A stretch of 64,000 nt of DNA from Ruminiclostridium sp. (GTDB lineage Bacteria; Bacillota; Clostridia; Oscillospirales; Ruminococcaceae). A model generated the notes under the pieces. That model did not search any database, was not told where the DNA came from, and saw nothing but the letters and a program-made list of their open reading frames with translations. The position numbers and the translations under genes are program-made. Location: the NCBI GenBank assembly GCA_045579625.1, contig JAZNMN010000017.1, positions 163,002 to 227,001 on the forward strand, read 5' to 3'. Positions 1 to 24,809 of this stretch are shown here, piece after piece. The stretch's first letter is position 1, and each line of letters begins with the position of its first letter.

Positions 1-1
1 G

Positions 2-301
2 TATTCAGAGGAGATTATTGATATATTTAAAGAGCTTCGCAGTCTGATTTTCGAAAGCGTATCGGCTGACCTTACAGAAACAATGTGGGCTAAGCTTCCC
101 AGCTATTATAACGGTGAGAAGCTTGTAAGGCTGATACCCTTCAAGGATCACATAAATATAGAAGCGACAGCAATAACACCGCACAAAAGCGAACTGCAGG
201 GTTACAAAATCACCCCGAAGGGAATGCTTCAGATTTATATAGGGCAGGAACTGCCGAAAGAAGCTTTACAGCGGATTTTTACCGAAACGTTAGGAGAATA
301 G
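2..301 (+). CDS. DUF1801/YdhG-like protein, 5' truncated by window edge
   Basis: Frame is open from base 2 (YSEEIIDIFKELRSLIFESVSADLTETMWAKLPSYY...), so the track ATG at 83 is probably internal. The 'LR.LI...W..PSY' pattern fits DUF1801. Confidence 0.6.
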   Translation, partial: YSEEIIDIFKELRSLIFESVSADLTETMWAKLPSYYNGEKLVRLIPFKDHINIEATAITPHKSELQGYKITPKGMLQIYIGQELPKEALQRIFTETLGE

Positions 302-302
302 T

Positions 303-620
303 ATGTCAACCACGATGGAATATCTCGGCTTTATACTTGAACAGCTTTCATCTGTCGACGGAATTACTCACCGACAGATGATGGGGGAGTATATAATTTA
401 CCATAACGGTAAAATTGCGGCTTATATTTGCGACGACCGCTTGCTTGTAAAGCCTGTGCCGAGCGCAGTAAGACTTATGCCGAATGCTGTTTACGAGCCT
501 CCCTACGAAGGCGCAAAGGATATGCTGCTTGTTGAGAATGTAGATGACAGGGAGTTTCTTAAAAAGCTATTTGAAGAAATGTACGAAGAATTACCCGAAC
601 CGAAAAGGAAGAAAAAATGA
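303..620 (+). CDS. TfoX N-terminal domain protein
   Basis: MSTTMEYLGFILEQLS...RQMMGEYIIY...DDRLLVKP...PYEGAKDML is the typical TfoX/Sxy-N pattern. Confidence 0.85.
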   Translation: MSTTMEYLGFILEQLSSVDGITHRQMMGEYIIYHNGKIAAYICDDRLLVKPVPSAVRLMPNAVYEPPYEGAKDMLLVENVDDREFLKKLFEEMYEELPEPKRKKK

Positions 621-982
621 TGAATGATTTAATTTATGAGCTTGAAAACAGAATGTGGCAGGCGGCTAAAAGCGGCAATAAAGCCGATTTTTCCGAGATT
701 GTTTCCGCTGATGCGGTAATGGTCTGCGGCGGATATCGCTGTACAGGTGCGGAATATGCCGAATTTATCGGAGGTTTCGGAATATCGGAATATTCGATAT
801 CAGATTTTGAAATTGTACATAAAACCGATAAAGCTGTACAAGTCCACTATATTGTTAAAACTACTGCAGATTCTCCCAAAAATGCCGATCTTGCAGGCAT
901 ATTCCACGTTACCTCAACCTGGGAAAACAGCGGGAATGAATGGAAGCTTGTGTTCAATATGGATTCGAGAATTATGGAGTGA
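617..982 (+). CDS. DUF4440 / NTF2-like (SnoaL-fold) protein
   Basis: 121 aa; LE..MW.A...G N-terminus and STW....EWKLVF C-terminus typical of DUF4440. Overlaps the upstream stop. Confidence 0.75.
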   Translation: MMNDLIYELENRMWQAAKSGNKADFSEIVSADAVMVCGGYRCTGAEYAEFIGGFGISEYSISDFEIVHKTDKAVQVHYIVKTTADSPKNADLAGIFHVTSTWENSGNEWKLVFNMDSRIME

Positions 983-985
983 AAT

Positions 986-1864
986 ATGGAGTACAGATTT
1001 TGCAATTTTAATGATTCCTGTTACGAAGAAATACGTCAGTTCTTAATCGGGTTATCCAACGAAAGCCGAACTCATATAAACTGGAATTGGGCAAGATGGG
1101 AGTGGATGTATTTTCATCCCGATTTTGACAGCAGTATTTCAGAGAAAATCGGAATGTGGTATTGTAATGATAAGATAATCGGTACTGCGATATACGATCA
1201 TTACCTGGGAGAAGCGTTTTTTGCCGTAAGAAAAGGTTATGAAGAGCTGAAAAAAGAAATTATATACTATATGATCGAGAACTTTGCGGATGAAAACGGA
1301 TTAGGTATTGCAGTAAATGATGACGATAATGAAACTGTTGACCTGATGTTATCCTTCGGTTTTTCACCCTGTGAACAGTCAGAGAACATACTTGCTCTGC
1401 CGCTTGATGAAGCGGATTTCAGCTTTAATATTAGCGATAATATAAAGCTTTGCTGTCTTGATGTGAAAAACGACCTGAACAGGCATCACAGGCTTCTTTG
1501 GAAGGGCTTCGACCATAATGGCGAGCCGCCTATGGATAAGGAAACGCTCGAAAAACAAAGCAGGATGCTGTCAGCTTACAATCTTAATACACAGCTTCAT
1601 ATTATCGCAGAAAACGAAGACTCGGAATACGTTGCATACTGTGGTCTATGGTATGATAATACAACAGATTATGTCTACGTTGAACCTGTTTGTACTATTC
1701 CTGAATATCGCGGTAAAGGACTTGCAAAGACTGTTCTTAAAGAAGCTCTTAGGAGAGCGTATAATATGGGAGCGAAAACCGCTTATGTAATATCAGATTC
1801 TGAGTTTTATAAGCGTTTAGGCTTCAGACGACATTCTCACTATACATTTTATTGGAAGAAATAA
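986..1864 (+). CDS. GNAT family N-acetyltransferase
   Basis: C-terminal acetyl-CoA motif A VCTIPEYRGKGLAK and motif B FYKRLGF; GGAG RBS. Confidence 0.85.
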   Translation: MEYRFCNFNDSCYEEIRQFLIGLSNESRTHINWNWARWEWMYFHPDFDSSISEKIGMWYCNDKIIGTAIYDHYLGEAFFAVRKGYEELKKEIIYYMIENFADENGLGIAVNDDDNETVDLMLSFGFSPCEQSENILALPLDEADFSFNISDNIKLCCLDVKNDLNRHHRLLWKGFDHNGEPPMDKETLEKQSRMLSAYNLNTQLHIIAENEDSEYVAYCGLWYDNTTDYVYVEPVCTIPEYRGKGLAKTVLKEALRRAYNMGAKTAYVISDSEFYKRLGFRRHSHYTFYWKK

Positions 1865-1889
1865 TTATTTGCTTCGGAAGGAGTGAAAT

Positions 1890-2189
1890 ATGAAAGAAAT
1901 ACTTAAAAACTTTCTTGATTCGGAGGGCAGGCTTACTGCCTATCCGTCGAAAAGAAAAATGAAGCTTTGCGCTTTGATTTATATTGCGGAGAAAATCGAA
2001 AAGGACAGAACTTTTACCGAAAAGGAGATAAATGCGGTTCTGAACAGCCTTCACACCTTTAATGACCCTGCAACGCTCAGGCGAGAGCTTTATACCCACA
2101 GATTCCTTGACCGTGATTCCTACGGAAAGGAGTACAGAATGGAAGAAAATCAGCCTACTTTGGAGGAGCTTGAAAAAAGATACGGCTGA
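1890..2189 (+). CDS. DUF2087 domain protein
   Basis: FLD.EGRL..YPSKRK...F.EKEIN..L...DPATLRRELY...FLDR pattern. Confidence 0.85.
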   Translation: MKEILKNFLDSEGRLTAYPSKRKMKLCALIYIAEKIEKDRTFTEKEINAVLNSLHTFNDPATLRRELYTHRFLDRDSYGKEYRMEENQPTLEELEKRYG

Positions 2190-2233
2190 GAAAAATTTGC
2201 TCAGCAAATATAAACGCTGAAAGGAGTGATTTT

Positions 2234-3025
2234 TTGAAGCGGCTTTATATTGTGGAAGGCTTGCCCTGTTCGGGGAAAAGCACTGTTTCTGCGTTTTTGG
2301 CCGAGGAGCTTAATAAGAGTTACGATGTCTGCTTTGTTGACGAGGGAACAGGAGAACACCCAGCAGACTATGAATTTCATTCATTTATATCCGAATCGGA
2401 TTTATCCTCCTTCGGCAGAACTGAACAAGCGGAAATTATTTCGGTCTCAGAAAAGCTTTACGGCGGATATATAATCCCGTTAAAATGCTTCAGCGGTAAT
2501 ATGTTTGATAGATTACTCCCACATAAAATATATGATTTTCTGCCTTGGGAAACGGAAAAGCCTATTATGCTCGAGAAATGGGAAAGTTTTGCAGAATATT
2601 CTGTTACAAATACAGTTTATGTATTCAACTGCGTTTTTCTGCAGAATCCTATGTGCGAAACTATGATGCGCTTTGGTTTTTCACAAGAAAAATCAAAGGA
2701 ATACATATCCCGTATTGCCGAAATAATAAAGCCCCTTAACCCCGTTATAATCTATCTTAAAAATAATGATATCCGAAGCTCGGTTGAAAAGACTTCAATG
2801 GAGCGTGAGGGCTGGCTCGACGCAGTTATTGATTATCATATAAACGGAGCCTACGGAAAAAGTATAAATGCAGAAGGCTTACAGGGGTATATATCCTGCC
2901 TTCAGGAAAGACAGAAAAGAGAGCTCGATATTCTTTCGGCTCTCGATATCGAAAGCGTTGTGCTCGATAATCCTCAGAGGGACTGGAATAGCGCTTATGA
3001 GGATATAAGGAAGCTCTTATTTTAA
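2234..3025 (+). CDS. P-loop NTPase / kinase-like protein of unknown substrate
   Basis: TTG start after AAGGAG; N-terminal Walker A EGLPCSGKST. Confidence 0.65.
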   Translation: MKRLYIVEGLPCSGKSTVSAFLAEELNKSYDVCFVDEGTGEHPADYEFHSFISESDLSSFGRTEQAEIISVSEKLYGGYIIPLKCFSGNMFDRLLPHKIYDFLPWETEKPIMLEKWESFAEYSVTNTVYVFNCVFLQNPMCETMMRFGFSQEKSKEYISRIAEIIKPLNPVIIYLKNNDIRSSVEKTSMEREGWLDAVIDYHINGAYGKSINAEGLQGYISCLQERQKRELDILSALDIESVVLDNPQRDWNSAYEDIRKLLF

Positions 3026-3040
3026 AAAGGAGGAACAATT

Positions 3041-3442
3041 ATGAGATTAGACGGTTTTGGCTTAATGGTAAATGATATGGCGGCTATGATACGCTTTTAC
3101 CGCGATGTGCTTGGCTTTGAAATAAAAGAGGGCGAGGATACCTCGAACGTGTATCTTATAAAGGATGGTACGCTTTTCCTTTTATACGGCAGAAATGATT
3201 TTGAAAAAATGACAAGCCGTAAATACGAATATGTAAAGGGGCTTAACGGCCATTTTGAAATAGCGCTTTATGTAGATACCTTCGATGAGGTAGATAAGAC
3301 CTATGATGAGGTAATTTCCAAGGGCGCCGTTTCAGTTCTTGCGCCCGAAACAGAACCCTGGGGTCAGAGAACCTGTTACATAGCCGACCCCGAAGGAAAT
3401 CTTATAGAAATAGGCTCGTTCAACAAGCCATTTGAAAGATAA
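3041..3442 (+). CDS. VOC / glyoxalase-bleomycin resistance family protein
   Basis: V.DM.....FYRDVLGF and PWGQRTCYIADPEGNLIEI motifs. Confidence 0.9.
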   Translation: MRLDGFGLMVNDMAAMIRFYRDVLGFEIKEGEDTSNVYLIKDGTLFLLYGRNDFEKMTSRKYEYVKGLNGHFEIALYVDTFDEVDKTYDEVISKGAVSVLAPETEPWGQRTCYIADPEGNLIEIGSFNKPFER

Positions 3443-3456
3443 AGGAGTTATTATAA

Positions 3457-3894
3457 ATGATAAGAAAAATGCAGAAGGCTGATATTTCAGCCTGTGCGGA
3501 AATTCTCTGTGCAGTATACAACAACGAAATGTGGCAGTGCCGTTGGACTATCGAAACAGGCGCAGCATATTTGAAGGATTACTATGAGGCAGGAAAATTC
3601 GTTGGATTTGTACTGGAAGAAGTGGGAAGGGTAGAAGGCGCTTTATTCGCTCACGAAAAAATCTGGTGGAACAACAGTGAGCTGTTCATTGATGAAATGT
3701 TCGTAAAGCCCGAAAACCAAAGGAAGGGTTACGGCAGTATGCTTATAAGAGCAGCCGAAGAATATGTAAAGGAGCATAAGCTCGCAGGCCTTACGCTTTC
3801 TACAAACAAGTATGCTCCTGCACCTAATTTCTACCGTAAAAACGGATTTAACGACAATGAGGTCATTATGTTTATGTATAAGGAGAATTTATGA
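3457..3894 (+). CDS. GNAT family N-acetyltransferase
   Basis: VKPENQRKGYGSMLI (motif A) and FYRKNGF. Confidence 0.9.
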   Translation: MIRKMQKADISACAEILCAVYNNEMWQCRWTIETGAAYLKDYYEAGKFVGFVLEEVGRVEGALFAHEKIWWNNSELFIDEMFVKPENQRKGYGSMLIRAAEEYVKEHKLAGLTLSTNKYAPAPNFYRKNGFNDNEVIMFMYKENL

Positions 3895-4457
3895 GAAGCG
3901 ATATTACAATAAGACCCGAGACGACCAAGGATTATAAAGAGATTATTTCGCTTGTTTTACGCTCCTTCAGCGAAGGAACAGACTATTCCGACGGAAGCGA
4001 CATTATCGCTCTTATAGAGGAAATAAGGATGTCGGAGTATTATATTCCCGAGCTTTCCTTTGTTGCTGAGCTTGAGGGGAAAATAGTAGGACACTTCCTT
4101 TTTTCGAAATTTCCTCTTTCCGAAAAGCCCGAGGGCGGACATATAAACGACGGAAGTATAGCTATGCTTGCGCCCGTTTCGGTGCACGCCGATTATTTTC
4201 ACAAGCATATAGGCATAACAATGCTTAAGCTCGGAATCGAAGAGGTTAAAAAATACGGCTTCAAGGGTATAAATGTTGAGGGCGATTATCACTTTTACAA
4301 CCGCGTAGGCTTTAAAACCTCTTCGGAATACAATATCCTTCCTACAAGCGGTTTTCCTATGAAGGAGCCGAGATGTATGATGTGTATGGAGACCTCGGAA
4401 GGCTCCCTTAAGGATATAAGCGGATATGTGGTTTACGATATGTATTATAATGCTTAA
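3891..4457 (+). CDS. GNAT family N-acetyltransferase (YhbS-like)
   Basis: IRPET..DY, PELSFVAE..GKIVGH, LAPVSV, GD..FYNRVGF; ATGA overlap with upstream gene. Confidence 0.85.
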   Translation: MRSDITIRPETTKDYKEIISLVLRSFSEGTDYSDGSDIIALIEEIRMSEYYIPELSFVAELEGKIVGHFLFSKFPLSEKPEGGHINDGSIAMLAPVSVHADYFHKHIGITMLKLGIEEVKKYGFKGINVEGDYHFYNRVGFKTSSEYNILPTSGFPMKEPRCMMCMETSEGSLKDISGYVVYDMYYNA

Positions 4458-4472
4458 GCGAAAGGTGAAAAT

Positions 4473-4817
4473 ATGAAGGCAGTAAATTTACTTAACGAAG
4501 TTAATGCAGTAGAAAAGCTTTATGTCTATGAGAAAATCGGAAGACTCAACGGAAATGTTCTAAGCGTTGTTAATGTTGAAAACAGGACTCTTGATTTTCA
4601 CGTACACGAGAATTCCGATGAGCTTTTCTATGTAATCGAAGGAGAATTCAATCTCGAAACGGAAGAGGGGCTTATTCCCGTAAAAAGCGGTGAATTCATT
4701 ATTGTACCTAAGGGAACGAGACACCGCCCTGTAGTAACCGCCCTCACAAAGTTTCTGATGATTGAAATGGACGGTACGCTGAATAAGGAAAACAGCGGCG
4801 ATTTATATGAGGACTAA
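4473..4817 (+). CDS. Cupin domain protein
   Basis: FHVHENSDELFYVIEG and GEFIIVPKGTRHRP cupin motifs. Confidence 0.9.
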   Translation: MKAVNLLNEVNAVEKLYVYEKIGRLNGNVLSVVNVENRTLDFHVHENSDELFYVIEGEFNLETEEGLIPVKSGEFIIVPKGTRHRPVVTALTKFLMIEMDGTLNKENSGDLYED

Positions 4818-4826
4818 ATAATACCA

Positions 4827-5879
4827 ATGAATGAAGTTATGAAAAAATATGGTCTTAACGACCGATTCTATGCTCTTTCAACTATGTATGAAGGCTTGTC
4901 GGTGGGCAGGGTAATTCTCCAGGAAAAGGGCATATATAAGATAGTAACGGAAGAGTGCGAAAAGCTTGCCGAGGTATCGGGAAAATTCCGATACAACGCA
5001 AAAACAGTATCAGATTTTCCGACTGTAGGAGATTTTGTAATGGTTGATGCGAATGAAACAGGCGGAAATGCGGTAATTCATCATATTCTTAACCGAAAAA
5101 GCAGCTTCATCCGCAAGGCGGCCGGCACAGAAAGACAGGAACAGATTGTAGCGGCAAATATAGACACGCTCTTTTTATGTATGGCTCTTAACAACGATTA
5201 TAATTTACGTAGAATGGAGCGTTATCTTTCTATCGCCTGGGACAGCGGCGCAAAACCTGTAATAGTACTTACAAAATCCGATTTATGCGAGAATTTGAGC
5301 AAGAAGGTCAATGAGCTCGAATCAATTACGATCGGCGTAGATATTATCGTAACAACAGCTATGGAAACGGAGGGCTGTAAAAAGCTTACTCAATACCTCA
5401 AGGATGGCGAAACCGTAGCTTTTATAGGCTCTTCGGGCGTCGGAAAATCCACCCTTATAAATCGGCTTATCGGAGAAGATTTACTTGAAACGAACGGGCT
5501 TCGAAATGATGATAAGGGTCGCCATACCACAACCCACAGGGAATTGCTTCTGCTTCCCGGGGGCGGAGCGGTAATCGATACGCCCGGAATGCGTGAGCTG
5601 GGAATGTGGGATTCATCAGAGGGCGTTAATCGTACCTTTTCCGATATCGAAGTCCTTACTTCTCTTTGTAAATTCAGTAACTGCACTCACGGAAATGAAA
5701 AGGGATGTGCAGTAAGGGCGGCGATAGAAAGTGGCGAGCTTTCCGAAGAACGTCTTATTTCTTACAATAAGCTGAAAAATGAGCTTTCCTACGCTGAAGA
5801 CAGCGAGAGCTATCTTACTGCCAAAAGGCAGAAATTCAAGGAAATAGCCAAGTATAATAAAAACAATCGAAAAAGATAA
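4827..5879 (+). CDS. rsgA: Ribosome small subunit-dependent GTPase A (long, accessory-type copy)
   Basis: Circularly permuted GTPase motifs TKSD, GSSGVGKSTL, GRHTTT, DTPG, and Zn-finger CKFSNCTHGNEKGC. Confidence 0.9.
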   Translation: MNEVMKKYGLNDRFYALSTMYEGLSVGRVILQEKGIYKIVTEECEKLAEVSGKFRYNAKTVSDFPTVGDFVMVDANETGGNAVIHHILNRKSSFIRKAAGTERQEQIVAANIDTLFLCMALNNDYNLRRMERYLSIAWDSGAKPVIVLTKSDLCENLSKKVNELESITIGVDIIVTTAMETEGCKKLTQYLKDGETVAFIGSSGVGKSTLINRLIGEDLLETNGLRNDDKGRHTTTHRELLLLPGGGAVIDTPGMRELGMWDSSEGVNRTFSDIEVLTSLCKFSNCTHGNEKGCAVRAAIESGELSEERLISYNKLKNELSYAEDSESYLTAKRQKFKEIAKYNKNNRKR

Positions 5880-5895
5880 AAGGCTTGAATACAGC

Positions 5896-5936
5896 AAAAA
5901 ACCCTGCTTTGGAACACAAAGCAGGGTAATTTTTTT
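5896..5936. terminator. Bidirectional intrinsic terminator
   Basis: Perfect 11-bp stem ACCCTGCTTTG/CAAAGCAGGGT with an A-tract before and a T-tract after, between convergent genes. Confidence 0.85.
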
Positions 5937-6013
5937 CAGTCTTTACTTATAAGCCCGATTTATTGCAGTCAAGACCCGACAGTCCTTTCACAGTATGTAC
6001 AAGGAGACGGTTA

Positions 6014-6226
6014 TCAGAAATCAATCTTATTGACGTCGGAATTAGCGAGAAGCACTTCCTTCTTAGGTATACGCATAAGGGGATTATAGGTAAATTTCTT
6101 GCAAGCGTCATAGGGCTTTACAGAGCCAAACTTGCTGCAGTCATATTTTTCGTTATCCAAAGGGGTACAAAGAAGGCAGTATTTGCACGCAGGCTTGATA
6201 TTGTTACCAAAAAGCTTCTTTTTCAT
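6014..6226 (-). CDS. Small Cys-rich hypothetical protein (70 aa)
   Basis: ATG at 6226 has an AGGAGG RBS, so the track start at 6268 is probably too long. Contains CKYCLLC...C...C. Confidence 0.7.
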   Translation of the reverse strand: MKKKLFGNNIKPACKYCLLCTPLDNEKYDCSKFGSVKPYDACKKFTYNPLMRIPKKEVLLANSDVNKIDF

Positions 6227-6284
6227 ATTATAACCTCCTGAAAGTATTACTTTTAATAAGTATATCATAAATTACAATAAATTT

Positions 6285-7319
6285 CTATAGTTTTTTTAAA
6301 ATTTTTTCACTTTTTAAAAAAATAATTGTACACATCACAATAAGAAGTATAACAACCGTCTTATCCTGATTAAGGGTATATATGTAATTCATTGAGCCCG
6401 AGGAGGTCTTTACGGTAATTTCCCAGAAGCTCATTATAATAACCGTTATAATGTAGCTTAAAACCGCACAGACGGCTCTGCCTGCAAAGAAATACTTAAG
6501 CGGAAAGCTTTTTCCCGAAACAGAAACGCATTGTAAAAGCACGCAGATACCGCCGAAAGAGGAAATTGAGGAAATAAGCGGCAGTATTTCAGGCGACGGC
6601 CCTTCAAGCCTTATAAGGTTACTTATCTCCGCCATCCCCTTTATAACAGGGGACAGAGTAATTCCGAATTCAAATAAAAGGCTCTCGCTTACCGATAAAG
6701 CCGAATTAAAGCAAATTATTATGGCTGAAATCATAAGAAGGGCTTTCGAAGCGCTGTTTATAGAATAGACCATTCCTTTATCCTGCAGGGGGAGCGGAGC
6801 GAGAGGTATTTCCTTTATTTTTCTTGAGCAGAATACTGCAGTAATAAAGCAAGCAAGCACATTAGATATATAGACTATAATTCCTGCGTCGGCACAGCCA
6901 TATATTCCATAGCCTATAATATTCACAGCGAAAACAGGGGATACGCAATATGAGAAAACAGACATAACTGCGCTTATTTCGGAATAATTTTTATTTTCCG
7001 CAGTTTTTTCCTGTAAAAGCTTGATTCCTGTAGGATATCCGCCTATAAGACTTAGAACGAAAATTGTAAACATCTCCTTATCAAGCTTTATTATCGGTCT
7101 TAACAGCTTATAAAGAGGTGTAATAAATACGTTATATATCTTCTTATATATGATATAGGAAGAAAGCACCATAAATACAAACATTGAAGGGATTATTACT
7201 GTCAGACATACGTTTATACTTGTGGATATACTTTCCGCCATAACCTTCGGGTATATTATAAACAGAACAAGCAGTATCAGAGTAAAAATAACTTTTATTG
7301 CGGCTTTTATTTTATTCAT
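6285..7319 (-). CDS. YlbJ-like sporulation integral membrane protein (nucleoside-recognition/Gate domain)
   Basis: Multi-TM; VIIPSMF.F and SLIGGYP.G motifs; divergent from yqfC-yqfD. Confidence 0.7.
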   Translation of the reverse strand: MNKIKAAIKVIFTLILLVLFIIYPKVMAESISTSINVCLTVIIPSMFVFMVLSSYIIYKKIYNVFITPLYKLLRPIIKLDKEMFTIFVLSLIGGYPTGIKLLQEKTAENKNYSEISAVMSVFSYCVSPVFAVNIIGYGIYGCADAGIIVYISNVLACFITAVFCSRKIKEIPLAPLPLQDKGMVYSINSASKALLMISAIIICFNSALSVSESLLFEFGITLSPVIKGMAEISNLIRLEGPSPEILPLISSISSFGGICVLLQCVSVSGKSFPLKYFFAGRAVCAVLSYIITVIIMSFWEITVKTSSGSMNYIYTLNQDKTVVILLIVMCTIIFLKSEKILKKL

Positions 7320-8888: not shown

Positions 8889-9794
8889 ATGAAAAAAATA
8901 CTGCCGGCTATTATCGCTTTGGCAGGCATATTCTCCGCAATAGCCGCTGTGCTGTACAGAGTCTTTCTTTATGCCGATATGGAGAAATTTCCCGGAAAAA
9001 TGGAGCCTGAGGATGAAAAATGGCTTAAAAATTGCGGTAAAAAGAACATTTATCTTACTTCCTCCGACGGCTTATTTCTTCACGGCTACGCAATTGAAAA
9101 TACAGTCAAAAATACAGCAAGCCCCGCTAAAAAATGGGTAATCGCCGTTCACGGATACGACGGGCGCTCCGATTATATGGCAGTATATGCCCGAAAATTC
9201 ACAGAAAAAGGTTATAACGTGCTTTTGCCCGACCTGAGAGGCTTCGGATTGAGCGAGGGGAAGGAAATAACTATGGGACATCGTGAAAAGGACGATATAA
9301 TCCTGTGGATAAATAAGCTGATTGATGATTACTCGGCAGAAGAAATAATTCTTTTCGGAATTTCAATGGGCGCCGCTACAGTTATGCTTGCTTCGGGAGA
9401 AAAGCTTCCCGATAATGTAAAATGCATTATCGAGGACGCAGGCTATAGCTCTGTAAAGGAAGAATTCGAGCATAACATCAGAAGAATTATTCATATTCCG
9501 CCGTATCCTGTGCTATGGTTTGTTGATGTGATATCACGGCTTAAAAAAGGATGGAGCGTATTAAAGGATGCGGACTGCATAGAAGCGGTAAAGCGTAATA
9601 AGCTCCCCATATTGTTTATACACGGAAGCTGTGATGATTTTGTGCCATTTGAAATGCACGACAAGCTTTATAATGCTTCAGCCTCCGAGAAAAAAGAAAA
9701 GCTTATAGTATACGGTGCAAGACATATCGAAAGCGTTAGAATTGACGAGGAATTATACTGGAATAAAATTTTCAGCTTTATTGATAAATACTGA
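8889..9794 (+). CDS. Alpha/beta hydrolase with N-terminal TM/signal anchor
   Basis: HGY, PDLRGFGLSEG, GISMGAA nucleophile elbow, HGSCDDFVP, GARH. Start uncertain (8877 or 8889). Confidence 0.85.
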   Translation: MKKILPAIIALAGIFSAIAAVLYRVFLYADMEKFPGKMEPEDEKWLKNCGKKNIYLTSSDGLFLHGYAIENTVKNTASPAKKWVIAVHGYDGRSDYMAVYARKFTEKGYNVLLPDLRGFGLSEGKEITMGHREKDDIILWINKLIDDYSAEEIILFGISMGAATVMLASGEKLPDNVKCIIEDAGYSSVKEEFEHNIRRIIHIPPYPVLWFVDVISRLKKGWSVLKDADCIEAVKRNKLPILFIHGSCDDFVPFEMHDKLYNASASEKKEKLIVYGARHIESVRIDEELYWNKIFSFIDKY

Positions 9795-9803
9795 GATATT
9801 TTT

Positions 9804-9838
9804 ATTAGTCGGCTCTTGATTGAGTCGGCTAATTTTTA
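9804..9838 (+). terminator. Intrinsic terminator of the hydrolase gene
   Basis: 12-bp stem ATTAGTCGGCTC/GAGTCGGCTAAT (two G-U pairs) followed by a T-tract. Confidence 0.7.
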
Positions 9839-9851
9839 TGTTATATTTCGA

Positions 9852-9879
9852 ATTGCGTAGTTTATACAGAACAAGCAAT
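9852..9879. other. Degenerate 28-bp 11-6-11 recombinase-type site (site A)
   Basis: ATTGCGTAGTT-TATACA-GAACAAGCAAT; shares AATTGCGTA with site B and has outer ATTGC...GCAAT symmetry over exactly 28 bp. Confidence 0.45.
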
Positions 9880-9880
9880 A

Positions 9881-9909
9881 TTGCAGAAAACAATGAAATA
9901 TGCTATAAT
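9881..9909 (+). promoter_or_regulatory. SigA-type promoter of the recombinase gene
   Basis: TTGCAG-17 nt-TATAAT with an extended -10 TG. Confidence 0.7.
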
Positions 9910-9952
9910 AAGGGGAAAGAGATAAGAAGCCCCTTATTTAAAAATATAGATA

Positions 9953-9980
9953 ATTGCGTAAAATAAAAATTTTACGAAAT
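9953..9980. other. Candidate dif-like tyrosine recombinase site (site B)
   Basis: ATTGCGTAAAA-TAAAAA-TTTTACGAAAT: 11-bp arms, 10/11 inverted identity, 6-bp spacer; 38 bp upstream of the recombinase ATG. Confidence 0.6.
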
Positions 9981-10018
9981 AAAGGGAAGCGTTAAAACCT
10001 GAATGGAGGCAAACAATT

Positions 10019-11008
10019 ATGAAATTTAACGATTGTCCTGGATATCTTCAGGAATACCTCAATTATATCGAAACAATTAAAATGCGCTCAGCATTAACAG
10101 TAAAAAATTATTATTCGGATTTAAAGCTGTTTCTGAGGTTTCTTAAGATTGGAAACAAATCAGTTTCCGAAGAAGAATTTTCTAAGATTACAATTTCAGA
10201 TGTTTCTGAACAAGCTGTCAGAAATGTTACTCTCAATGATTTGTTGTCGTTTCTTTCTTATACAGCCTCTGAGCGCGAGAATCATTCAAAGGCACGTGCT
10301 CGTAAGGCTGTTGCATTAAGACAATTTTTCAAGTATCTTACTGTAAAAAAAATGTGGTTTGATGTAAGTCCTGCACAGTATCTTGAGCTTCCGTCGCCGA
10401 AAACCTCTCTTCCTAAGTACCTTACTATTGAACAGGCCTCCGCCTTACTTAAAACCTGCGCTGATTTTAAAAGCTGGGCCGATTACCGTGATTACTGCAT
10501 TATTACCTTTTTTCTTAATTGCGGAATGAGACTTTCGGAATTGGTGCAGATTAACGTAAACGATTACATAGAGACTGTAGCAGGGGGAGTTCAGACGCGT
10601 TTTATAAAAGTTCTCGGTAAAGGCAGTAAGGAGCGTATAATATACCTGAATAATGCCTGTACAGACGCATATCACAGCTATATAAGCGTAAGACCCGATA
10701 CAAGCGATAAAGCGCTATTTATAAGCTCGAGAGGTACACGCATATCCAACCGCCGTGTAGAACAGATTATCGAAGAAAAGCTTAAGCTTTCAGGCCTTAG
10801 CGGAATGGGCTTTTCCGTTCATAAGCTCCGCCATACGGCAGCCACGCTTATGTATCAGAACGGCGTCGATGTGCGAGTTCTTAAGGAGGTTCTCGGTCAC
10901 GAAAATCTCGATACAACACAAATTTATACACACGTCGCCAACGAACAGCTTCGTACAGCCATAGAACAGAATCCCCTTTCAGATATTACTGCGAAAAAAG
11001 TAAAATAA
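10019..11008 (+). CDS. xerC: Tyrosine recombinase, XerC/XerS-like chromosomal type
   Basis: 329 aa with SAM-like N-terminal domain and intact catalytic set GMRLSEL (R), GKGSKER (K), HKLRH (HxxR), LGHENLDTTQIY (H, Y). No mobile-element cargo nearby. Symbol is family-level. Confidence 0.85.
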   Translation: MKFNDCPGYLQEYLNYIETIKMRSALTVKNYYSDLKLFLRFLKIGNKSVSEEEFSKITISDVSEQAVRNVTLNDLLSFLSYTASERENHSKARARKAVALRQFFKYLTVKKMWFDVSPAQYLELPSPKTSLPKYLTIEQASALLKTCADFKSWADYRDYCIITFFLNCGMRLSELVQINVNDYIETVAGGVQTRFIKVLGKGSKERIIYLNNACTDAYHSYISVRPDTSDKALFISSRGTRISNRRVEQIIEEKLKLSGLSGMGFSVHKLRHTAATLMYQNGVDVRVLKEVLGHENLDTTQIYTHVANEQLRTAIEQNPLSDITAKKVK

Positions 11009-24338: not shown

Positions 24339-24809
24339 TCAGTCCTCCGTTAAATATTCCTTAAGTATACCTCTCGCTCTATGAAGCTTTGTTGTAACCG
24401 AGGTTACGCTTATTCCGAGTATGGCAGAAATCTCTTTAACCTGATACCCCTCGTAATAATGTAGGAATACTATATTCCTGTAGTCGGGTTTAAGCTTCGA
24501 AAGCGCATTCCTGAGCGAAATAACAGAGTCACGGTCAGAATCCTTGAACTCAGCGTAATCAGGTAAATCTGTTCGTTTCGCCCTCCACCAGGATTTTGTA
24601 TAATTCCGTGATTTATTTATCGTAACCCTTATAAGCCACGCTTTAAGCTGTTCCTTATTCTCGAAGTTCTTACCCGAGTTGTATAGTGCAAGAAAGGTTT
24701 CCTGTACTATATCGTCGCATACCGATAAATCACAGGTATTATTGTACGCAAGCTTATAAATCAGATTTTTAAACTCACCTATATTTTCTTCAAGCTCATT
24801 GTCAGACAC
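24339..24809 (-). CDS. ECF-type RNA polymerase sigma factor
   Basis: DDIVQETFL, WLIRVTINKS, LHYYEGYQVKEISAILG...V...LHRAR. Confidence 0.92.
   Translation of the reverse strand: MSDNELEENIGEFKNLIYKLAYNNTCDLSVCDDIVQETFLALYNSGKNFENKEQLKAWLIRVTINKSRNYTKSWWRAKRTDLPDYAEFKDSDRDSVISLRNALSKLKPDYRNIVFLHYYEGYQVKEISAILGISVTSVTTKLHRARGILKEYLTED

Follow-up and report, generated by a model that had tools for sequence, protein, structure and literature searches.

Resolution of chromosome dimers is a core function of the cell cycle, and the locus described here raises the question of whether it may be served by one enzyme acting on one nearly symmetric site. The locus lies in a 64,000-nucleotide stretch of DNA from Ruminiclostridium sp. 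(assembly GCA_045579625.1, contig JAZNMN010000017.1, positions 163,002 to 227,001 of the forward strand), which we call the window and whose own numbering is used for its features below. At 9953-9980 of the window an inverted repeat precedes the gene for a tyrosine recombinase, and an initial annotation, made from the letters of the window only, had taken the pair for a module of chromosome dimer resolution. We consider this very probable: judged by sequence comparison, the repeat is most likely the chromosome dimer resolution site (dif), and the gene that starts 38 nt downstream of it codes for what is probably the only Xer-type recombinase of this gut bacterium. Since the palindrome is near chance expectation, its geometry alone is weak evidence, and the case rests on the conservation of the site, on its position at the replication terminus and on the insertion of mobile elements into its counterparts.

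The palindromic site, its conservation and its position

The putative dif core site, to which no strand is assigned, reads ATTGCGTAAAA-TAAAAA-TTTTACGAAAT, with the left arm at 9953-9963, the core at 9964-9969 and the right arm at 9970-9980. Its coordinates and letters, read again from the sequence, are exact, as is the description in the initial annotation of two 11-bp arms that agree at 10/11 positions around a 6-bp spacer. The sole mismatch between the inverted arms is at position 4 (G vs T), and the gap between the end of the site (9980) and the ATG of the recombinase gene (10019) is 38 nt. The 28-mer occurs once in the window and once in the organism's own assembly (2.17 Mb in 79 contigs), even if 6 mismatches are allowed.

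Conservation was analysed in a sample of 61 genomes of the family to which the window belongs (Oscillospiraceae in the NCBI sense). One clear ortholog of the recombinase was found in 47 of them (in 38 of the 44 genomes of good quality), and a second match at E < 1e-20 was almost never seen. The 11-6-11 geometry is common to 22 aligned orthologous sites, and the family consensus, ATTTCGCTAAA-Tnnnnn-TTTAGCGAAAT, has arms that are symmetric at 11/11 positions. The two arms co-vary, as in the pairs ACTGCACAAAA/TTTTGTGCAGT, GTTTCACCAAA/TTTGGTGAAAC and ATTGCACTAAA/TTTAGTGCAAT, and the 6-bp core is free to vary; this is the pattern expected of arms that are bound by a protein and of a strand-exchange region that is not recognised. 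The degenerate search pattern RYTNCRNNAAAN6TTTNNYGNARY was matched about once per genome in 42 of the 61 genomes, and its reversed version, used as a control, was almost never matched. The expectation that the motif would be single-copy is thus borne out, both in the organism's own assembly and among its relatives.

Linkage between the site and the gene was counted in the 44 family genomes with a full-length ortholog. The same palindrome family recurs upstream of the orthologs, as it should if the proposal of the initial annotation was right: the site lies at most 400 bp upstream of the gene in 32 genomes and 0.6-2.2 kb upstream in another four, the distance is 10.8 kb in one (G046) and 89 kb in one (G023), and in two (G005 and G033) the site and the gene are on different contigs. 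In the unlinked cases no palindrome is found before the gene, and the site persists alone in a perfect or near-perfect form. Beyond the family, many families of the class have orthologs with upstream palindromes; the ortholog is a single-copy gene, found in about 95% of the good-quality Clostridia genomes sampled. Of the earlier claim that this is the dif of one Clostridia lineage, the reading as dif was therefore upheld, but the restriction to a single lineage was not, as many Clostridia families have the same arrangement.

Along the organism's own 230-kb contig the GC skew changes from positive values on the left to negative ones on the right, and the cumulative maximum at 174,274 of the contig lies 1.3 kb from the site, which is at 172,954 in the same numbering; the location near a skew extremum that a dif site should have is therefore found. 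Similar values were obtained for G008 (maximum at 453,756, site at 452,097, over 400 kb) and G009 (maximum at 90,903, site at about 90,866, over 200 kb), and in all four long contigs (200-400 kb) the site is 0.04-4 kb from the skew maximum. The fourth of them, from G023, has the maximum at 117,700, the site at 113,675 and the xer gene at 24,706; the site being at the skew maximum and the gene 89 kb off, it is the site and not the gene that marks the terminus. In six complete, single-contig Clostridia genomes from five families, in which dnaA is located at about base 1, the ortholog is found at 45.5-50.8% of the chromosome. As a separate observation, contig G005:C11 (106,553 bp) ends 35 bp past its palindrome (106491-106518), with the GC skew rising to the very end; this break of the assembly at the dif site could reflect variation between strains or an element inserted in a part of the population.

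The location at the GC-skew switch would also suit a Ter-like replication-termination site, recognised by a fork-arrest protein and standing beside a recombinase gene by accident, and in Bacillus the RTP-binding Ter sites are indeed imperfect inverted repeats of about 30 bp. Known Ter systems, however, comprise several polar sites in two opposed groups, whereas the genomes analysed here have one near-symmetric site each, and the tight linkage to an Xer-type gene together with the insertion of elements is the hallmark of a recombination site. We give this alternative almost no credence.

The insertions were seen in relatives, outside the present window. In G046 (locus L045, G046:C20, 3500-14223) a 10.7-kb element lies between a degenerate site beside the xer gene and a perfect site; the degenerate site keeps one perfect arm, and about 35 bp of flanking sequence is common to both copies, which form a direct repeat. 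The element carries genes for a rolling-circle Rep protein of the Rep_trans family (3.5e-33), a Zot-like ATPase, two MucBP proteins and a NERD nuclease, and no integrase is encoded between the two sites. The second case is a 7.1-kb sequence from IMG/VR (L175, 3300010280_000110, 1-7103), in which a degenerate site, a 5.8-kb element and a perfect site are followed by an ortholog of xer. This element also encodes a rolling-circle Rep (1.4e-18), has a weak Zot-like match, and is filamentous-phage-like and integrase-less; the promoter region upstream of dif is present in duplicate over about 115 bp, which might keep xer expressed after the insertion. The layout in both cases is the known arrangement of elements that exploit the Xer recombination of their host.

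Exact copies of the family palindrome were also found in five related, essentially complete phages of 57-59 kb from IMG/VR (L167, L170, L174, L176 and L177), four of which have direct terminal repeats. The core of the palindrome is TTAGAC in three of them, and L174 and L177 have GTTGAG and its reverse complement, CTCAAC. All five encode a tyrosine recombinase of their own, of 415 or 400 amino acids; in L167 the palindrome may be near the gene of that enzyme, if the locus begins at base 1 of the contig. These phages may target the dif site of the host with their own integrase or may resolve their own dimers at the site.

Could the gene and the site themselves be the relic of a mobile integration module (an integrase with its attachment site), or a cassette for dimer resolution of the plasmid type? 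Integration modules typically have the gene beside its site (Le Bourgeois 2007, PMC1914069), and the existence of complete 57-59 kb phages with the exact family palindrome and an integrase of 415 amino acids would fit such an origin. The surroundings of the module speak for a resident gene, since its upstream neighbours encode YlbJ, YqfD and an alpha/beta hydrolase, its downstream neighbours encode a prephenate dehydrogenase and a GH2 glycosidase, all of them housekeeping proteins, and domain-model searches among the genes of the window revealed no mobile cargo around the gene and the site. Moreover, the ortholog is present as a single copy in nearly all the good-quality Clostridia genomes sampled, it is located opposite dnaA in the six complete genomes, and its neighbour genes change from genome to genome while the module remains at the terminus. 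As the gene occurs across the class in one copy, at the terminus and with a vertical distribution, we regard a mobile relic as highly unlikely.

One recombinase or two

The gene at 10019-11008 (plus strand) is an intact open frame for a protein of 329 amino acids, which matches the Phage_integrase model PF00589 at 8.1e-40 and, in its N-terminal SAM-like domain, the model PF02899. An alignment of 17 orthologs shows the catalytic residues R171, K201, H268, R271, H294 and Y303 to be invariant, i.e. the protein has the constitution of a simple tyrosine recombinase with CB and CAT domains and the R-K-H-R-H-Y set. The earlier description of an intact Xer-type recombinase without mobile cargo agrees with this frame, its domain match and the housekeeping genes around it. 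The protein nevertheless scores below the cut-offs of all the models of individual Xer families: 213.4 bits vs 335.15 for XerC (TIGR02224), 194 vs 329.6 for XerD (TIGR02225), 186.8 vs 220 for XerA (NF040815) and 126 vs 267 for XerS (NF003462), the last alignment being limited to residues 155-317. The closest solved structures are those of XerA (5hxy, 3.2e-26), XerD (1a0p) and again XerA (4a8e).

Four matches to PF00589 were found in the organism's own genome, and the three other than the enzyme of the module are two arm-type integrases (frames of 372-378 amino acids) and a fragment of 106 amino acids. The search with PF00589 thus revealed no XerC/XerD pair in the assembly, which is 93.8% complete. 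Likewise, no canonical Firmicutes dif was detected in this genome at up to 6 mismatches to three sequences of Kono 2011, and a degenerate canonical dif pattern gave zero matches in it. A separate XerC/XerD pair with a canonical dif site, which would have spoken against the module, is therefore not seen in this assembly.

Many other Clostridia families differ in this respect, as they encode, in addition to the ortholog, another protein, about 300 amino acids long, that is a genuine XerD (374 bits with TIGR02225, above the cut-off of 329.6); such a XerD is found beside the dif-linked enzyme in G183, G078, G199 and G113 (loci L205-L208). When this genuine XerD served as the query against the window's family, the best match was nearly always the dif-linked enzyme itself, at 29-35% identity, and XerD-like genes were limited to G039, G004 and G032. 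In G039 (G039:C27) the distance between the XerD-like gene and the dif site is about 1 kb. By these searches the family is a single-enzyme one, in which XerD has been lost except in those three genomes. The claim of a single recombinase accordingly stands for the organism's own genome and for its family, but not for the other Clostridia families, which carry bona fide XerD.

An FtsK translocase is encoded in the same genome: the FtsK_alpha, FtsK_SpoIIIE (motor) and FtsK_gamma domains are present in one open reading frame (G000:C17, about 5.8-7.5 kb). From the chemistry of tyrosine recombinases one would expect one protomer to bind each of the near-identical 11-bp arms and, in a dimeric chromosome, the two sites to be synapsed by a homotetramer. 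Strand exchange would then take place across the 6-bp core, which varies between species and would have to be identical in the sister copies, and FtsK, with its alpha, beta and gamma domains, probably gathers the sites at the septum and may also activate recombination. We infer binding, cleavage, FtsK dependence and autoregulation by the recombinase at the site.

Several points weigh against the reading of the module as dif and its sole recombinase. As to geometry, the window contains three 11-6-11 palindromes with arms identical at 10/11 positions or better, and block shuffles contain 0.65 on average; a chance palindrome was considered as an explanation, and the geometry is indeed near chance, but this is overridden by the conservation. 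The strict pattern is unmatched in four of the 44 genomes with a full-length ortholog (G004, G007, G026 and G053), in which diverged sites may exist. Three family genomes have a second good palindrome (G021:C35:1310, G027:C15:11249 and G030:C15:21965), located among housekeeping genes, such as those of cobalamin synthesis and gpsA. We considered mobile elements as the source of the second palindromes of G021 and G027 and rejected them, as their neighbours are cobalamin and glycerol-3-phosphate genes and no mobile genes are seen; all three could result from contamination of the bin by a related strain, or could represent a second replicon or a relic. The terminus of the organism itself is read from the skew of one 230-kb contig of a draft assembly, and from this draft, in 79 contigs and incomplete as stated above, a second Xer gene or site could be missing. 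In the other Clostridia families, which keep XerD beside the enzyme, a two-enzyme reaction may be possible. The G-rich octamers GGGAAGGG and GGGGAGGG, which are similar to motifs of this kind for FtsK orientation, point strongly toward the site from either side (10:1 in G000:C17; 53:10 and 54:10 in G008:C2; 8:1 and 11:0 in G009:C1), and the Bacillus motif GAGAAGGG is weakly skewed around it; the former two were rejected as evidence of sequences that orient FtsK, because they are confounded by ribosome-binding sites and by the co-orientation of genes with replication. With these points taken into account, the locus still appears to be a real dif/Xer module, a dif-linked single-recombinase variant of the known Xer systems, with a palindromic site.

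The leader of the recombinase gene

The likely promoter of the recombinase gene is located at 9881-9909 (plus strand), with TTGCAG at 9881-9886, a 17-nt spacer and an extended -10 element, TGcTATAAT, at 9901-9909; a consensus scanner missed it because its -35 hexamer matches the consensus at only 3/6 positions. Clear TTGACA-17-TATAAT promoters are found immediately 5' of the palindromes at orthologous loci. A Shine-Dalgarno sequence, GGAGG, was read at 10005-10009 (plus strand), 9 nt 5' of the ATG. With the promoter before it and GGAGG after it, the site falls within the 5' leader of the recombinase gene, at about +35 to +65, and a recombinase bound there probably also limits its own transcription.

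Such a position invites the view that the palindrome is a transcriptional operator only, bound by the recombinase or by another dimeric regulator, with no recombination involved. Palindromic operators of this size are common, and at this locus, as at most of the orthologous ones, the site has the promoter on one side and the ribosome-binding site on the other. Copies that have become separated from the gene nevertheless stay single, perfect palindromes (in G023 at 89 kb, in G005 and G033 on other contigs), and the one in G023, the sole unlinked case with a measurable skew across the site, sits at the skew maximum. In addition, integrase-less elements have inserted exactly in the site, leaving a perfect and a degenerate copy. 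Autoregulation would be compatible with a role as dif, but it is unable to account for the unlinked copies and the insertions, and we regard an operator without recombination as very unlikely.

Alternatively, the inverted repeat might form an RNA hairpin in the 5' untranslated region, with a role in stability or attenuation, and the co-variation of the arms would then reflect base pairing. It would be transcribed if the proposed promoter is used, and an 11-bp stem is present in the predicted fold of the leader. That fold is, however, not significantly more stable than those of shuffled sequences (z = -1.69), and a scan of 9700-10150 against Rfam at a permissive threshold returned noise only, i.e. 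no family. All eight arm asymmetries in the 22 sites are of non-pairing types (G.A, T.T, T.C and C.A), with zero G.U. The unlinked copies are outside any xer leader, and in three loci (L004, L007 and L021) the whole unit is inverted relative to the gene. We consider a hairpin function extremely unlikely, and the preferred reading remains that of a recombination site in the leader of the gene for its own recombinase.

The alignment of the 22 oriented sites with their flanks also revealed a G-rich box, AAAGGGAAG, at 9981-9989 (plus strand), which abuts the right arm. In most of the relatives an AGGGGAG-like box is found 2-4 nt past the arm, even where the start codon is more than 100 nt off, and in L004, L007 and L021 the box and the A-rich strand of the core are both flipped relative to the gene. 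Because it is kept when the start codon is distant or the unit is flipped, the box seems to be a part of the site unit rather than a ribosome-binding site. A fixed polarity of the core and the box with respect to the replichores was tried as a rule and rejected, as it holds in three of five contigs and is reversed in G023 and G005. As a symmetric site gives two different enzymes no means to set the order and direction of strand exchange, these would have to come from the core, from the flanks (for instance the conserved G-rich box) or from FtsK.

Three other features were noted in the intergenic region. Its 5' limit is a terminator-like hairpin of the upstream hydrolase gene (9804-9833, plus strand). 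Between this and the promoter is a stretch that we call 'site A' (9851-9879, plus strand), which ends 1 nt short of the -35 hexamer and contains a second copy of AATTGCGTA (9851-9859), placed 101 bp upstream of the copy in the true site (9952-9960). There are only 14 occurrences of AATTGCGTA genome-wide, both strands counted, so a copy at this distance is unlikely to be due to chance. 'Site A' (9852-9879) was rejected as a full second recombination site, for it shares one outer half-arm with the true site, has 7/11 symmetry and is absent in a relative of the same genus; it could represent an isolated half-site for binding, or a scar left when an element was once inserted. Finally, a GGGG/CCCC hairpin (AGGGG...CCCCT) at 9911-9934 is located at the predicted start of the transcript, between the -10 element and the site, and is not found in the same-genus relative.

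Relation to the known Xer systems

To our knowledge, only a handful of one-enzyme Xer systems is known, namely XerS, XerH, XerA and XerL. The closest in function and layout is XerS/difSL of Streptococcus and Lactococcus (PMC1914069, PMC2965235), which, as here, belongs to a Firmicutes host with FtsK and combines one recombinase with a terminus-located site just upstream of the recombinase gene. Speculation about difSL has placed it between promoter and gene, with autoregulation and a barrier to insertions as consequences (Le Bourgeois 2007, PMC1914069), and it is this promoter-site-gene layout that is visible at the present locus. The parallel drawn by the initial annotation with XerS/difSL thus survives for the architecture but not for the family membership: the enzyme is below the NF003462 cut-off and only its catalytic domain is aligned, so that by sequence it is closer to XerC, XerD and XerA than to XerS, and the resemblance is one of architecture. 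The sites differ as well, as difSL is an atypical site of 31 bp, a length taken from the papers, and the present one has 28 bp, the 11-6-11 geometry and near symmetry.

The XerC/XerD-dif system of E. coli, Bacillus (CodV/RipX) and most bacteria shares with the present one a 28-bp site of 11-6-11 geometry, which is single-copy and located at the terminus, and the presence of FtsK; the best model scores of the enzyme are also those for XerC and XerD. In contrast to that system, there is here one enzyme in the genome and in the family, its gene is linked to the site, and its scores are below both equivalog cut-offs. Compared with the Firmicutes dif sequences of Kono 2011, the site is identical at 14-17 of 28 positions, and the symmetry of the arms is 4-8/11 in canonical dif, but 10-11/11 in the present site and its family.

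Archaeal XerA also acts as a single recombinase on a 28-bp dif-like site (Cortez 2010, PMC2958812). The present enzyme, however, scores under the XerA cut-off given above, and its host is bacterial and has FtsK. We do not know of tight linkage between gene and site, or of a position in the leader, as features of XerA systems. XerH/difH of Helicobacter and Campylobacter (Debowski 2012, PMC3325230; Bebel 2016, PMC5241119) resembles the module in having a single recombinase and largely palindromic arms, but it belongs to another phylum and is a distant relative in sequence (5jjv, 8.2e-16, catalytic domain only). The recently recognised single-recombinase system of Legionellales, XerL/dif (PMC9765430), has a palindromic, AT-rich, terminus-located dif that was found through an integrated mobile element, so that the logic of the evidence was the same as here. 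According to its description, XerL is set apart by its greater length (its catalytic mutant is Y387F, PMC9765430), by its host and by a gene that is not generally linked to the site.

No published account of this module was found in the full-text literature, where the motif sequences were also searched for, subscription journals being outside the search; as the initial annotation had surmised, no experimentally defined clostridial dif was found in the searchable literature either. On balance, and with more reserve than for the site itself, we favour the view that the module represents an undescribed Xer family that extends across Clostridia, with a single recombinase whose gene carries in its leader the fully palindromic 28-bp dif on which the enzyme acts; that it has become the sole dimer-resolution machinery in the window's family, where XerD would have been lost; and that it is a target of integrase-less prophages of the filamentous type.

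Among the Clostridia are important pathogens as well as many of the gut's most abundant commensals. The prediction of dif failed in C. perfringens and C. beijerinckii (Kono 2011, PMC3025954), and in C. botulinum E3 and B Eklund, on one reading of the unlabelled columns in the supplement to that paper, the predicted dif and the skew shift point are about 174-175 degrees apart; these results are consistent with the absence of canonical dif from Clostridium. If our reading is true, a palindromic-dif system may explain why canonical dif predictions fail or fall near the origin in this genus. A defined site with its enzyme would provide a precise marker of the terminus for draft genomes and for metagenomic estimates of growth rate, an explanation for the entry of integrase-less filamentous phages into Clostridia genomes, and a simple homomeric recombinase-site pair as a genetic tool for anaerobes that are hard to engineer. 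It would also be a test case of how order of strand exchange and control by FtsK are imposed on a symmetric site.

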